Positions 16,893-21,539 of a stretch of 21,738 nt of DNA are shown here, piece by piece. A program made the translations under genes and the position numbers. The stretch lies in IMG/VR virus record IMGVR_UViG_2537561977_000011. One strand, 5' to 3'. The DNA comes from a virus (taxonomy: Duplodnaviria; Heunggongvirae; Uroviricota; Caudoviricetes). The stretch's first letter is position 1, and the number at the start of each line of letters is the position of its first letter. The notes below the pieces were generated by a model. It did no database searches, was not told the origin of the DNA, and saw nothing but the letters and a program-made list of their open reading frames with translations.

Positions 16893-17389
16893 GGGATTTC
16901 CCCGCGGGCCAGTGCGTTCTTGACGTCGCTGATCCGCGCCTCGTCGTTAGACGGGAACGTCACCAGACTGACTTCCCAGAGGTCGATTTCTTTCAGCAGA
17001 AAGGCTTCTTTGCTCCGGTCGTATTCCCAGTCTTTCAGGACGTACCCAATAGAAAGGCCGGTTAACGAACCGGCCTTCATGTGTGCATGTGCACGTTTTG
17101 CGAGGGGATCATCATCAATAAGCAACCGTCCCCTGACGTAAAGCCCGACATCGTCTTCCTTCATTTCGGTGTAAACACCGATGGGTTCATCCATGCGGTG
17201 CTGCCAGAGCAGCGCAGGTAACGCTTTTCTGTCACTCCACGCCCGCAGGGAAGCAGCAAATGCCCCGGACATCACCACATCATCGTGGCTGTCCTTTACA
17301 CCAAAGACGGAGCCATACCCTTCAAACTCACCGGAGTCACTGACAGATTTCAGACTCAGCGGTACATCAAGACGTTGTTTCGTCTGCAT
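16889..17389 (-). CDS. HK97-family prohead protease, C-terminally truncated by the IS10-like insertion
   Basis: Lies between portal and capsid genes; ends ...ARGEIP then a stop inside the IS end. Probable start ATG 17389 (AAGGA upstream); the ORF-track start at 17425 has no ribosome-binding site. Confidence 0.8.
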   Translation of the reverse strand: MQTKQRLDVPLSLKSVSDSGEFEGYGSVFGVKDSHDDVVMSGAFAASLRAWSDRKALPALLWQHRMDEPIGVYTEMKEDDVGLYVRGRLLIDDDPLAKRAHAHMKAGSLTGLSIGYVLKDWEYDRSKEAFLLKEIDLWEVSLVTFPSNDEARISDVKNALARGEIP

Positions 17390-18608
17390 TGGCGTTATCC
17401 TTCTGCTTACCGGCTTTACTGCCATCGGAGGGTTTCGTGGTCATGTTCATCGGTGTGAGATAGACATCCCCACCGGGACGCGGATTCATATCTTCCAGGT
17501 CGCGGCAGTCATTGGGAGAGTAAATCCCCCAGTTAATCCCGGTGGCGTAGGCTTCAAAACGGGATTTCATATCCCCGCGCAGTAACGCCCCGGCGTTAAA
17601 TTTGGCGTAAAACTTCCCCTGTTTGCTCTCCCTGACCAGCCCTGTATTGATCCGTTGTTCAATACGGGTCAGATACGGCACAAGGGAATAGTTGATAAAT
17701 CCGAGCCCCAGCTCTTCAATATTGTTGAAAGTGGCGCGATCGGTGTTCTGCACCATGTGCAGCGGCACGCGGAAAAGACGACAGATTTCTTCCAACTGAA
17801 ACTTGCGGGTTTCCAGGAACTGGCTGTCCTCGGCATTCAGTGCCACCGGCTTCCAGTCCAGCCCCATTTCCAGAATCATCGGACGGTGCGCATTACCCAG
17901 CCCAAGATGACGCTCCTCAAAATCCCTCTTCATGCGCTCATAAGCATCCGGCGTGAGCTTTTGTTCCGTGCGCAACACACCGGATGTCACCGCACCATTA
18001 CCAAACAACCTGGCACCGTGCTCCTCGGTTGCCGCTGCCAGTGAAATGGCCTCGCGCGCATATGCAATGGGATTCAGCCCGACCAGTCCGTCCAGCGTCA
18101 GGGTGCGCACATGCCAGATTTCATCCTGGGTCAACACATCCACGGAACCATCCGGAAACGTCACCTGATAAACCGGCTGCCACTGGCTGTTCAGCTTCGG
18201 TTCCACACAGCCCGGATCTATCGGAAGAAGCTCCACAACTTCCCCCAGCGCCTTCACCTTGTAAGCGTAAAAATTCCCCCGCAGACACAGGCAGACGATA
18301 ACCAGCTCCCAGAATTCCTGCGGCGTCATGTAGCCATTGGGTTTTGCTGAAATCAGCTTATGCAGCCGTTCATCCACCGCCCGTGTTTTAAGGGTGCCGC
18401 TGATTTTGTAGAGACTGCAGGGCAGCATACCAACAGACTCAGCCAGCACCCTGACGCAGGAATAGACCGCCGTCAGCCGCATGGCCCGCTGGCTGCTGAT
18501 CCGCTTTCCGGTATAGGTGTCGTATGACAACCCCAGCTCTTCCGCAAGCATCCCGGGCGTTGTGACGGGGGTGTTATTTTTGCGTTGAAAAAGCCCCTGG
18601 AAAAACAT
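17367..18608 (-). CDS. portal protein, HK97 family
   Basis: 413-aa ORF directly downstream of the terminase genes; GGAGGTGA upstream of ATG 18608..18606, which overlaps the upstream stop (TAATG). Confidence 0.85.
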   Translation of the reverse strand: MFFQGLFQRKNNTPVTTPGMLAEELGLSYDTYTGKRISSQRAMRLTAVYSCVRVLAESVGMLPCSLYKISGTLKTRAVDERLHKLISAKPNGYMTPQEFWELVIVCLCLRGNFYAYKVKALGEVVELLPIDPGCVEPKLNSQWQPVYQVTFPDGSVDVLTQDEIWHVRTLTLDGLVGLNPIAYAREAISLAAATEEHGARLFGNGAVTSGVLRTEQKLTPDAYERMKRDFEERHLGLGNAHRPMILEMGLDWKPVALNAEDSQFLETRKFQLEEICRLFRVPLHMVQNTDRATFNNIEELGLGFINYSLVPYLTRIEQRINTGLVRESKQGKFYAKFNAGALLRGDMKSRFEAYATGINWGIYSPNDCRDLEDMNPRPGGDVYLTPMNMTTKPSDGSKAGKQKDNANADETTS

Positions 18609-18790
18609 TACTCACCTCCGGAGGCGACCCGGTGACCGCGATCGAGATAACGCGCAACCAGCCACGACCAGCACAGACACAGCGCCCCGGCAACAACAAA
18701 ACCTGCCGGGGGATAAATCAGCCATGTGCCATACGACAGCAAAAGCGCCCCCAGCACGCCCACCAGTGGCGTGAGAATTATCAGAAACAT
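18608..18790 (-). CDS. small membrane protein (60 aa, two predicted transmembrane helices) between terminase large subunit and portal
   Basis: ATG 18790 with GAGG 6 nt upstream, 11 nt after the terL stop; its stop TAA overlaps the portal ATG; hydrophobic segments [24 protein letters not shown] and [18 protein letters not shown], charged C-terminus. Confidence 0.5.
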
Positions 18791-18801
18791 AATGACCTCG
18801 G

Positions 18802-20559
18802 TTAAAGCGAGCGAATACCAACGCTGACCAGATGCTCAGACAGATCCGGCTCCGGTTCACCGCCATTGACCAGCATCCGGCTCATTGCTGTAAACATCGC
18901 AACAGGGCCGTCGATTTTGGCTTCCGGCGTGGATTTGTTCGGGAAGATATTGTCGTTTTTGTCCGGTTTCACCGTAACGTTAGACATCATCCAGTTCATG
19001 ACCGGGTGATTACTGTGATGGAAACGCCCGGCATAGACCAGTGATTCCGTTTCCTTCATGGCCTCTGACAGATTGCGGACCGTCTGCGGAACTTCCACCA
19101 GCGGTATACCTTCTTCAGCCAGCGCCAGACTGAACTGCATTGCGCTCCACGGGTCAAATCCCAGTTCCCTCAGGTTTTCACCGCCAATCCATTCCAGTAA
19201 GTCACTTTTTATCTGAGCATGATCGATAACATCACCATCCGTCAGAATCAGCTTATCCATCTCCGCCCACTTCCGGTAAAGTTCTGCCTGCTGCCGCGAG
19301 CATCGTTCCAGCCGTCCTTCCGGAAGCCAGAATTTAAAATCGGCATGAACATGCCCGTTATCCGTTCGCCAGAGTTTTGCCGCCGCACAGATATCAATCT
19401 TATGAGCAAGGTCAACGCCGACCCACATGGGATACGTTTTCAGCTCATGTCGTGGGGCAATGTATTCGCACTTCTCCCACTTAATCATGTCCATCCAGGC
19501 AGACTCTGCTGTTACCCACACATTCATGTGTTTGGTAAAAAAATTCACCCGCGCAGAGACCTGTTCTTTCGCTTTTTTCGCCAGGCGACGCAGATCATCC
19601 CAGCGTTTACAGATGCCCAGGCCGGGATTCGCTTTCTGCCAGACCGTTTCATCAAACGGATCATCTCCCTCATCGAGGGTGTAAATAATCGCAAAGTAGG
19701 AGTCGTCTTTTACCGCGCCCTCCACGTCGCTGTTATAGCCACGCAATACCTTGATGGCGTAATCACGCTGCTCGTAACAAATCCCTTCCTTGTTAAACCC
19801 TGCCGTGGTGATACCAAATAAAAGGGACTGCAGACGGGCACCGGTTGCCGTTTCCAGAACGTCCCACACGTCACGGGTTTTATGTGCATGCAGCTCATCA
19901 ATAATGGCGCAGTGGATGTTCAGACCATCCAGGTTGTTTGCATCTGAAGAAAGCGGTTCAAATTTTGATGCGCTCTGCTCCTGATAAATCGCCAGCTTGT
20001 TGAAATCAAACAACCGCCCGAGTGTCGACCGGGCTTTTCTGACCATATTTTTGGCGTCTTCAAACACGATTCTGGCCTGGTCACGCGTGGTTGCGGCTGA
20101 ATACACCTCAGCCCCGCCTTCACCATCTCGCCCCCGTCATATACAGACCGATACCTGATGACAGGGTTGATTTTGCGTTTTACGGGCGACTTCGTTGTAC
20201 GCTGTCCGGAAACGGCGCACCATCACCGGGCGTCCGCTGCCATCGCTGCGCATGACAACTTCCCCGGTCTCTTCATTCACCAGCGGAATGACAAAACCAA
20301 AAATATTAATGAGGATAAACACATGCCAGTCCATCAACTCAATGGGCTGACCTGCCAGCGCCCCTTTTACATGGGGCACAAATTTGTAGAAATTCAGGAT
20401 GTGCTGCGCACGGGGTTCACTGAAATAAATCCCCCGCTCTTCGCCGTACTTCAGATCATCAAGAAAACGCTGGCAGGCCAGACGGACAAATTCACCAGCG
20501 ACAATTTCTCCTGCAACAACACGTTCGGCGTAGCGGATCCCGTCAGCCACTTTTGCCAT
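18802..20559 (-). pseudogene. terminase large subunit, disrupted: P-loop region out of frame between two compensating homopolymer indels (A-run 20178..20181, G-run 20131..20135) with an in-frame TGA at 20137..20139
   Basis: ORFs 20137..20559 and 18802..20106 are in the same frame, separated only by TGA. The window frame reads ...EVARKTQNQPCHQVSVCI*RGRDGEGGAEVYSAATTRDQ, whereas the alternative frame across the 47-nt interval reads KNAKSTLSSGIGLYMTG, a Walker-A segment. Confidence 0.85.
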
Positions 20560-21041
20560 CAGTCTCTCGCTTTTAAAAGTTCTGCCAGCAGATCAACATC
20601 ATCCGGTCCGGCGATATTTACTTTCGCCCGGCTTGCCGGTGACATACCAAATTCTGCAAGCATCGCCCGGATCCGCTTCCAGGCATCCGCTTTCATCGCA
20701 GCAGCCGGGTGTGCCTTAATCAGCACATCACCGTTCTGCGTTTCCGTGCGGTAGGTATAACCCTCAACATCGAGGGTTTCGCAGTGATGCCGGTATTCGG
20801 TGTAGGCTTCCACCAGCAACTCGAGTGCACGCGCATCAAGCTGAGAAATGATCCCTTCCGCATTCAGCTCTTCCGCCATTCGCCTGAACCAGTACTTTCC
20901 CTGCGCCCCTAAATGCTGCGGAATTTTAGGGAGACCTTTTTCGTCCTTTTTAGCGGTTTTTTTGGCGTCTTTAACGGGACGCTTTGAGGGATTGCCTCGT
21001 ATCAAATGCAGGCGTGGCGGGGTTTTCGGGGGTCCTGACAT
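20559..21041 (-). CDS. terminase small subunit, P27 family
   Basis: 160-aa ORF with GNPSKRP near the N-terminus and FGMSPASRAK near the C-terminus, typical of P27-family TerS; stop TGA overlaps the terL ATG (ATGA). Confidence 0.8.
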   Translation of the reverse strand: MSGPPKTPPRLHLIRGNPSKRPVKDAKKTAKKDEKGLPKIPQHLGAQGKYWFRRMAEELNAEGIISQLDARALELLVEAYTEYRHHCETLDVEGYTYRTETQNGDVLIKAHPAAAMKADAWKRIRAMLAEFGMSPASRAKVNIAGPDDVDLLAELLKARD

Positions 21042-21188: not shown

Positions 21189-21539
21189 TCACCTGATTCG
21201 TTCGCGCGCTGTTTTCGCTTTATGGCAGGGCCAGCACAGACTCTGCAGGTTGCTGTCTGCGTCTGTTCCGCCATGCGCTTTCGGGATGATGTGGTCGACG
21301 GTTTTCGCCTCGCTCACCACACCGACACGCAGACACAACTGACACAGACCTTTATCGCGCTTCAGAATACGGGCACGAATCACCGTCCATTTTGAGCCAT
21401 AGCCACGCTGGTGGCGGCTCAGTCCGCGCTGGTGCTGCACCCAGCCTTCACCGCGATGCTTATCGCAGTAACCCGAACTGTCTGTGGTTGTACCTGCACA
21501 TCCACGCTTACGGCAGGCACGTGGGATTAGTGATGGCAT
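21189..21539 (-). CDS. HNH endonuclease (packaging-associated)
   Basis: 116-aa ORF; GAGG 7 nt upstream of ATG 21539; N-terminal Cys4 cluster (CRKRGC...CDKH) and C-terminal HNH motif DHIIPKAHGG...N...LCWPCH; directly upstream of terS. Confidence 0.85.
   Translation of the reverse strand: MPSLIPRACRKRGCAGTTTDSSGYCDKHRGEGWVQHQRGLSRHQRGYGSKWTVIRARILKRDKGLCQLCLRVGVVSEAKTVDHIIPKAHGGTDADSNLQSLCWPCHKAKTARERIR

Follow-up and report, generated by a model that had tools for sequence, protein, structure and literature searches.

The closest described relatives of the gene analyzed here are ymfR of the e14 prophage of Escherichia coli K-12, gp3 of phage SfII (identical to YmfR), L37 of phiP27, Sb3 of ST64B and gp3 of phiKO2, which form one family and occupy the same slot between the genes for the large terminase subunit (terL) and the portal protein, with a stop codon that overlaps the portal start. 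The stretch of DNA examined here (21,738 nucleotides, IMG/VR record IMGVR_UViG_2537561977_000011; hereafter the window) carries in this slot an open reading frame (ORF) of 60 aa, which is a real gene belonging to the head-morphogenesis block of a defective prophage like SfII, ST64B or phiP27 and differs from its YmfR-family relatives in sequence variation only (e.g., T22 in the window versus A in 67 of 75 relatives). That it encodes a late-expressed, head-module-linked inner-membrane hairpin made together with the portal is well supported. A preliminary description of the window had presented the ORF as having a ribosome-binding site of its own, encoding two hydrophobic helices and a charged tail, and overlapping the portal start (TAATG), all of which is borne out by the sequence:

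20106..18802, minus strand: 3' ORF of terL, 434 aa (nuclease domain and end of the ATPase domain; Pfam and PHROG matches)
18799-18796, minus strand: Shine-Dalgarno-like GAGG of the small ORF, 5 nt before its ATG and just past the terL stop
18790..18608, minus strand: small ORF (YmfR family, PHROG 502), 60-aa two-helix hairpin, predicted inner-membrane protein; stop codon included
18619-18615, minus strand: portal ribosome-binding site (GGAGG), lying within codons 58-59 of the small ORF
18610-18606, minus strand: TAATG stop/start overlap of small ORF and portal gene (portal ATG at 18608-18606, one base shared)
18608..17367, minus strand: portal gene (PF04860, phrog_12; Pfam E-value 1.6e-108, PHROG E-value 6.5e-143)

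Read from the sequence of the minus strand, the small ORF starts at an ATG (18790-18788) that lies 11 nt from the upstream terL stop codon (TAA, 18804-18802) and ends at a TAA (18610-18608). Among its homologues, a GGAG, GAGG or AGGA core is found at positions -18 to -4 in 34 of 75 loci. The conserved Gly-Gly at the C-terminus is explained by the portal ribosome-binding site embedded in codons 58-59, and G59 is invariant in the family alignment although the tail is otherwise nearly neutral.

The small protein matches phrog_502 ("membrane protein") at E = 3.6e-25, with residues 1-54 aligned to profile positions 3-56 of 58, and is 77% identical over all 60 residues to YmfR. It carries the turn motif of the family (G-[AVT]-W-x-[IVL]-[YLF]-P-[PA]-[AM]-G) as G21-T-W-L-I-Y-P-P-A-G30, together with G11, G14 and G35, and shows the family position, between terL and a PF04860 portal gene with its stop overlapping the portal start. 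Using blastn, the ORF was found in 1384 of 5426 complete E. coli genomes (about a quarter), and ymfR of e14 was identified as the same gene; in K-12, where remnants of terL and of the portal gene flank it, the stop/start overlap is the same. Sequence of E. coli FDAARGOS_944 matches the window at 99.9-100%. Translated searches (tblastn) located the gene in 43 phage records, including phiP27 (L37), ST64B (sb3), SfI, SfII, SfIV, phiKO2 (gp3), PY54, Yersinia and Klebsiella phages, Azospirillum phage Cd and Marinobacter phage AS1, and a family profile search of 1.84 billion cluster representatives returned 485 clusters at 50% identity (E ≤ 1e-3). Scans of the small protein against Pfam (E ≤ 0.1) and NCBIfam gave no match, and a PDB sequence search and a Foldseek search with the AlphaFold2 model returned insignificant generic hairpins only (best, V-ATPase subunit e, E = 3.6). 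The gene is thus already known and catalogued (YmfR/PHROG 502). The preliminary description had called it unexpected, but it is annotated as "putative integral membrane protein" in phiP27 (L37), SfII and others.

Annotation of the family is uneven. Members are unannotated in the deposits of vB_E253 (locus L404, 593-778), PY54 (locus L006, 2295-2492) and SfIV (KC814930, 2304-2483). In records ON470580, ON470603 and PQ793804 and in many Streptococcus thermophilus phages, genes of the YmfR family or of DUF1056 (described below) are labeled "head-tail joining protein W", "head-tail connector protein", "capsid and scaffold protein" or "phage tail protein". Such labels reflect nothing but gene position, and the fact that these proteins are hydrophobic hairpins contradicts them. 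Lambda gpW is a soluble protein that shares with the window gene only the terL-portal position and a similar length; identity with gpW was rejected on the lack of a Pfam match, a grand average of hydropathy (GRAVY) of +1.09 and the two hydrophobic helices, and the gpW label in ON470580, PQ793804 and others is a positional mis-annotation.

An open frame of 60 codons is not in itself beyond chance, as ~5-6% of random 60-codon stretches are open. Two further ORFs overlap the small gene (84 aa at 18866..18612, minus strand; 57 aa at 18632..18805, plus strand), and the portal ribosome-binding site accounts for the C-terminal Gly-Gly. These points would suit a chance ORF, or a spacer whose translation, and not its product, couples terL to the portal. 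What raises the small ORF above chance is its conservation and its substitution pattern. In 80 IMG/VR contigs chosen solely by portal similarity (88-100% portal identity), the ORF was intact in all 80, with 60 codons and a 1-nt overlap with the portal start (TAATG or TAGTG). Across 47 distinct gap-free homologous sequences of 183 nt, the annotated frame was the sole stop-free frame of the six and had the lowest ratio of nonsynonymous to synonymous polymorphism (pN/pS, 0.43), compared with 0.90 and 1.46 in the other two sense frames and 0.63-1.49 in the antisense frames. Constraint was uneven along the protein (pN/pS of 0.29 for residues 1-47, 0.11 for the turn at residues 22-32 and 0.71 for the tail at residues 48-60), and the variable sites of the core fell at codon positions 1, 2 and 3 in numbers of 21, 11 and 32, as expected for coding sequence. 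In unsaturated pairs, pN/pS was 0.15-0.34 for the small gene versus 0.05-0.12 for the portal gene. Both overlapping ORFs, the 84-aa one and the antisense 57-aa one, were rejected as genes (pN/pS ~0.9-1.5); the latter is open in 44 of the 47 relatives yet unconstrained (pN/pS 1.19).

The small ORF is therefore a protein-coding gene under moderate purifying selection, which is strongest at the turn between the helices. The preliminary description had allowed for a spurious ORF and had proposed as a check the conservation of the frame and codon-level selection in relatives that keep the flanking genes; both were found, and loss was not seen among the 80. Amino-acid-level constraint confined to this one frame, together with a length and two-helix architecture kept down to ~35% identity and across phyla, speaks against chance or a spacer. 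As far as computation can refute that explanation, it is refuted by the conservation in 80 of 80 contigs and the pN/pS values, and we give it next to no credence. The copy in Xenorhabdus bakwenae (locus L076, 3495-3662) is frameshifted after residue ~37 and has lost the portal overlap; it is the sole clearly decayed copy among 78 loci.

Gene context was followed through 70 genome loci found via the turn motif in Gamma-, Beta- and Alphaproteobacteria and a few Firmicutes or other metagenome-assembled genomes (MAGs); as the loci were selected with the motif, its invariance there is partly by construction, whereas the gene context is not biased. The order terL, small ORF (43-66 aa), portal was kept even where terL was only 22-45% and the portal 28-40% identical to those of the window, and a 1- or 4-nt stop/start overlap with the portal was present in at least 67 of the 75 loci having a portal. 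Six loci from Reyranella and related MAGs (L056, L060, L061, L069, L070 and L073) have 0.6-2.2 kb between the terL-matching region and the small ORF, reflecting an insertion after terL or an interrupted terL; the hairpin-portal overlap is retained in them.

Mosaicism separates the small gene from terL. Phages of the phiP27/SfII/ST64B type match the window at 17300-18819 only (protease, portal and small ORF) and have a terL that is ~36% identical, and phages of the Evi type match at 18860-20600 only (terL, 96%) and have a portal that is 27% identical. The first similarity ends at ~18819 and the second begins at ~18860, which places a mosaic breakpoint at the 3' end of terL and the small gene in the portal block. 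In agreement, across 58 loci the identity of the small protein was correlated with that of the portal (Spearman 0.71; partial 0.56 given terL) more strongly than with that of terL (Spearman 0.56; partial 0.25 given portal). The small gene thus moves with the portal, not with terL, in mosaic exchange.

The preliminary description had stated that HK97-type modules run terL straight into the portal. Per-lineage surveys by portal alone, which returned close relatives of each query and thus give per-lineage frequencies and not those of a random sample, confirmed this for the HK97-like lineage (79 of 80 with terL abutting the portal and no small ORF); it did not hold in three other lineages, with a 60-aa ORF in 80 of 80 window-like phages, a 53-aa hairpin in 78 of 78 Evi-like phages and a 59-aa two-helix ORF in 80 of 80 Sfi21-like phages, nor in about half of a wider sample. 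Phage Evi, which shares the terL of the window but not its portal, has a different two-helix ORF that overlaps both neighbors, is assigned to phrog_7105 with a weaker match to phrog_502 and aligns with the window family at an hhalign probability of 91.6%.

The wider sample was drawn by tblastn of the portal, whose family is present in 2064 of 50,697 phage records, and comprised 11 phages with terL or the record end directly upstream of the portal. Four of them carry a YmfR-family member by hidden Markov model (HMM) score: Burkholderia phage vB_E253 (42.5 bits), Vibrio phage K341 (24.1), mycobacteriophage Courthouse (gp11, 21.2) and Vibrio phage Cla (14.3), where composition-preserving shuffles reach at most 5-14 bits. 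These distant homologues, like that of Evi, were chosen purely by position upstream of the portal, with scores of 14-42 bits. In phages infecting Gamma-, Beta- and Alphaproteobacteria as well as Actinobacteria, the YmfR-family gene lies directly upstream of an HK97-family portal gene and overlaps its start. One further phage of the 11, Pseudomonas phage VB_PaD_phPA-G (locus L413, 3-161), has an unrelated two-helix hydrophobic ORF that overlaps the start of an HK97-family portal gene and scores -3 bits with the YmfR HMM; it is possibly a third unrelated family in the terL-portal slot.

The ORF of the Sfi21 lineage (orf59c; DUF1056, PF06341, phrog_1142) resembles the window protein in size (59 aa), in its two hydrophobic helices and in its slot before a phrog_12-type portal, and it is strictly kept within that lineage. 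In contrast to the overlap in the window, an 18-nt gap separates it from the portal gene. Homology between DUF1056 and the YmfR family was rejected (hhalign probability 0.25-0.9%; HMM score 0.8 bits, within shuffles), a result that, with a shallow DUF1056 alignment (effective number of sequences 1.15), does not extend to very remote homology. DUF1056 of Sfi21 is a positional and architectural analogue of the YmfR hairpin. It is kept in 237 phage records, including those of phages DT1 and 7201, which are virulent S. thermophilus dairy phages.

The topology of the small protein was derived from hydropathy, charge distribution and an AlphaFold2 model. Hydrophobic stretches span residues ~1-26 and 28-47 (Kyte-Doolittle), and the tail (residues 47-60) carries R, D, R, H, R and E. 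The model, built with the 47-sequence alignment, shows a helix at residues 2-25, a break at Y26 and a helix at residues 27-57, with a mean per-residue confidence score (pLDDT) of 83. Among 69 distinct sequences, K or R is found in the turn of none and in the C-terminal part of 68, and the N-terminus is basic when extended. Following the positive-inside rule, this charge distribution points to an inner-membrane hairpin whose two ends are cytoplasmic (N-in/C-in) and whose conserved turn lies at the periplasmic face. Five glycines are invariant or nearly so (G11, G14, G21, G30 and G35), of which G11, G14 and G35 lie outside the search motif. Natural tandem hairpin-hairpin fusions also occur (P0150, P0171, P0234 and P0260; ~100-120 aa, four transmembrane helices). 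Glycine and small-residue conservation and the tandem fusions suggest helix-helix packing and self-association, and the fusions hint at a dimer or oligomer as the working form of the single hairpin.

The remaining genes of this part of the window, from the HNH endonuclease gene to the prohead protease gene, are all on the minus strand:

21539..21189, minus strand: HNH endonuclease
21041..20559, minus strand: P27-family small terminase subunit (terS)
20559..20137, minus strand: 5' ORF of terL, 140 aa (phrog_10517 and phrog_9 matches)
17425..16889, minus strand: S78 prohead protease

The split of terL is due, relative to the 96% identical terL of phage Evi, to the loss of 1 nt from an A-run near 20182 and a compensating gain of 1 nt near 20129, which create a 53-nt out-of-frame stretch with a stop; this may reflect a pseudogene or a sequencing error. 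Further downstream, an IS4-like transposase gene (ISEc60-type, DDE_Tnp_1; 16860..15619) interrupts the head module at window positions 15619-16889, the prohead protease is shortened to 178 aa and the major capsid ORF (15420..14617) keeps its C-terminal part only (profile positions 263-485). With protease and capsid genes truncated around the transposase, the prophage is defective; the small ORF is nonetheless intact. At 332-2329, two tail-fiber ORFs (2329..1634 and 901..332, minus strand) with plus-strand ORFs between them (943..1218 and 1137..1640) recall the alternative or invertible tail-fiber segments of e14/Mu-type prophages.

A membrane protein in a head operon had led the preliminary description to propose a small moron, holin-like or an immunity/exclusion peptide. 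A moron for lysogenic conversion, or a peptide for superinfection exclusion, would be produced by the prophage and keep related phages from injecting their DNA, like HK97 gp15 or T4 Imm. The gene does resemble HK97 gp15 as generally known, likewise a small inner-membrane protein encoded among the structural genes of an HK97-type phage operon; phrog_502 is classed in PHROGs as "moron, auxiliary metabolic gene and host takeover"; and the gene is intact in defective prophages (the window and K-12 e14) whose neighboring genes are pseudogenes. However, gp15 is a prophage-expressed moron, whereas no transcription signals of its own were apparent for the window gene, and HK97, unlike the window, has no gene in the terL-portal slot. 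A consensus scan of 4.4 kb gave three promoter-like and six terminator-like sites versus 3.1 and 4.3 expected, no excess over shuffles, and the promoter-like site nearest the small ORF has its -10 element inside the ORF, so that transcription would start within it. A "rho-independent terminator" annotated in the SfII homologue corresponds to a weak 5-bp stem at window positions 18757-18745 and was rejected as no better than shuffles. Composition carries no foreign signature either (G+C of 0.59 for the small ORF, 0.55 for the portal gene and 0.52 for terL; at third codon positions, 0.62 versus 0.65 and 0.58), presence/absence polymorphism was not seen among the 80 relatives at 88-100% portal identity, and PADLOC defense models gave no family at E ≤ 1.

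Expression of the K-12 orthologue also argues against a moron. Under SOS induction, ymfR rises with other e14 genes (log2 fold change of 4.52, compared with 4.76 for ymfJ, 4.78 for ymfQ, 4.52 for tfaP and 4.56 for xisE; PMC10012262, Table 1). This ~23-fold rise (from PMC10012262) together with the lytic genes of e14 indicates that ymfR is repressed in the lysogen and co-expressed with the lytic program. Retention in virulent dairy phages (DT1 and 7201 among them) speaks against a role of the analogue DUF1056 that is tied to lysogeny. Taken with the constant presence among close relatives, these results leave the moron proposal without support, and we regard a conversion or exclusion function as improbable.

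With low confidence, we favor a different role, a membrane-embedded accessory of the portal or prohead step, because of the invariant coupling to the portal gene, the co-inheritance with it, the recurrence of the same architecture in the slot in unrelated families and a precedent in phage T4. Portal initiation in T4 needs a membrane protein, and membrane-assisted portal initiation is documented only there and has not been demonstrated for other phages (PMC3185693). The small protein would be made from a late polycistronic mRNA, with ribosomes then reinitiating on the portal gene; its hairpin would insert into the inner membrane so that the N- and C-terminus are cytoplasmic and the conserved turn is at the periplasmic face, and may self-associate via the Gly/small-residue faces of its helices. 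Without becoming part of the virion, the protein could, in the manner of the T4 precedent, act as a tether or chaperone that localizes or nucleates portal-containing proheads at the membrane. Such an accessory would help without being required, given that the HK97 lineage does without it. The likeness to the membrane chaperone of T4 gp20 initiation, a phage membrane protein at the portal/prohead-initiation step, is one of function alone: in T4 the chaperone and portal genes are not neighbors, HK97-type heads are not known to assemble at the membrane, and the portal link is here one of genetic linkage only.

Several points weigh against a portal accessory. Membrane-associated prohead assembly is undocumented outside T4 (PMC3185693), and a literature search on the family (phiP27, ymfR, DUF1056 and mycobacteriophage relatives) returned no experiment on, or function for, any member. 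Heads are assembled without a hairpin gene in the HK97 lineage (79 of 80) and in 6 of the 11 sampled phages, which have nothing in the slot. The HK97 portal, which has an N-terminal extension, is 32% identical to that of the window, as close as those of hairpin-bearing phages (phiKO2, 35%); with hairpins present or absent among similarly distant portals, the gene must have been lost or gained repeatedly and is not essential to the portal type. Adjacency, overlap and co-inheritance are also expected of any tightly packed neighbor, and in HK97 terL itself overlaps the portal start. Finally, the parts exposed to the cytoplasm are tiny (1-5 residues at the N-terminus, 3-20 in the C-terminal tail) and the least conserved (tail pN/pS 0.71), and the best-conserved part, which in the predicted topology faces the membrane or periplasm, would suit a target there better. 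Conserved turn and intramembrane faces combined with tiny variable cytoplasmic parts fit an effector of the host envelope about as well.

Such a late membrane effector would have no direct tie to the portal, the terL/portal boundary being merely a tolerated slot, and could act as an oligomer in the inner membrane or through a host component bound by the turn, with membrane potential, lysis timing, holin/antiholin-like action or a late block to competitor DNA as possible outcomes. The most constrained residues are indeed those of the turn and the intramembrane Gly/small positions, the tandem fusions with four transmembrane helices suggest oligomers, and the gene is dispensable in many lineages. 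Class II holins and pinholins such as S68 of phage 21 are generally known to be alike in size (~60-70 aa), two transmembrane helices, N-in/C-in topology, a charged C-terminus, Gly-rich faces and late expression. The terL/portal junction is, moreover, a recombination boundary and a known site of gene insertion in other phages (PMC7302621, PMC5513430). Against this, the window protein matched no holin or lysis family in Pfam, PHROGs or NCBIfam and no defense family, and its gene lies in the head module, outside a lysis cassette; in the related phage Evi a canonical cassette (S, lysozyme and Rz) stands elsewhere, upstream of terS. The ASKA ymfR clone survived selection at 0.1 mM isopropyl β-D-thiogalactopyranoside in a membrane-protein screen (PMC10299036, Table 1), which argues against lethal holin-like activity; as the clone is tagged, this evidence is weak. 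A free accessory would also not be expected to keep both slot and portal overlap from phages of Proteobacteria to those of Actinobacteria. An envelope effector is on balance an unlikely explanation, albeit a serious one.

A protein carried in the virion for ejection or piloting, which would be packaged close to the portal and would enter the inner membrane of the recipient cell to aid DNA entry, would likewise fit a gene adjacent to and co-inherited with the portal, and a hydrophobic hairpin might form or seed a membrane conduit. In mycobacteriophage Omega, however, gp12 (a family member, 20.7 bits) was not among 17 virion proteins detected by mass spectrometry, whereas the portal was (PMC3706429, Table 3), an absence that is weak evidence because the sole sizeable tryptic peptide of gp12 is a hydrophobic one of 51 residues. 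For Serratia phage BZS1, virion mass spectrometry did not detect even the portal. The same hairpin-bearing head module is combined with contractile tails (the window, SfII) and non-contractile ones (phiKO2, PY54, Omega), which differ in entry route, and no mechanism is known that would keep such a hairpin soluble in a lipid-free capsid. We therefore consider packaging into the virion improbable.

For the window itself the result is an ordinary one: the ORF had been rightly picked out and belongs to a catalogued family with a named K-12 gene, ymfR, among its members. More broadly, about half of the sampled HK97-family head modules retain a gene for a ~60-aa membrane hairpin that overlaps the portal start, in phages whose hosts include Proteobacteria and Actinobacteria, and an unrelated look-alike fills the slot in phages of Firmicutes. 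The analysis also brought to light recurrent mis-annotations and several unannotated copies of the family. This wider pattern poses a small, well-defined question that can be tested in tractable phages (e14, SfII, phiP27, Omega and Sfi21-like phages). The YmfR hairpin might, more speculatively and in our judgment rather doubtfully, be an ancient membrane partner of HK97-family portals, conserved in phages of Proteobacteria and Actinobacteria alike, with DUF1056 taking over its function in those of Firmicutes. If true, a broad class of tailed phages would carry out prohead initiation or DNA packaging anchored to the cytoplasmic membrane, which T4 alone is so far documented to do.

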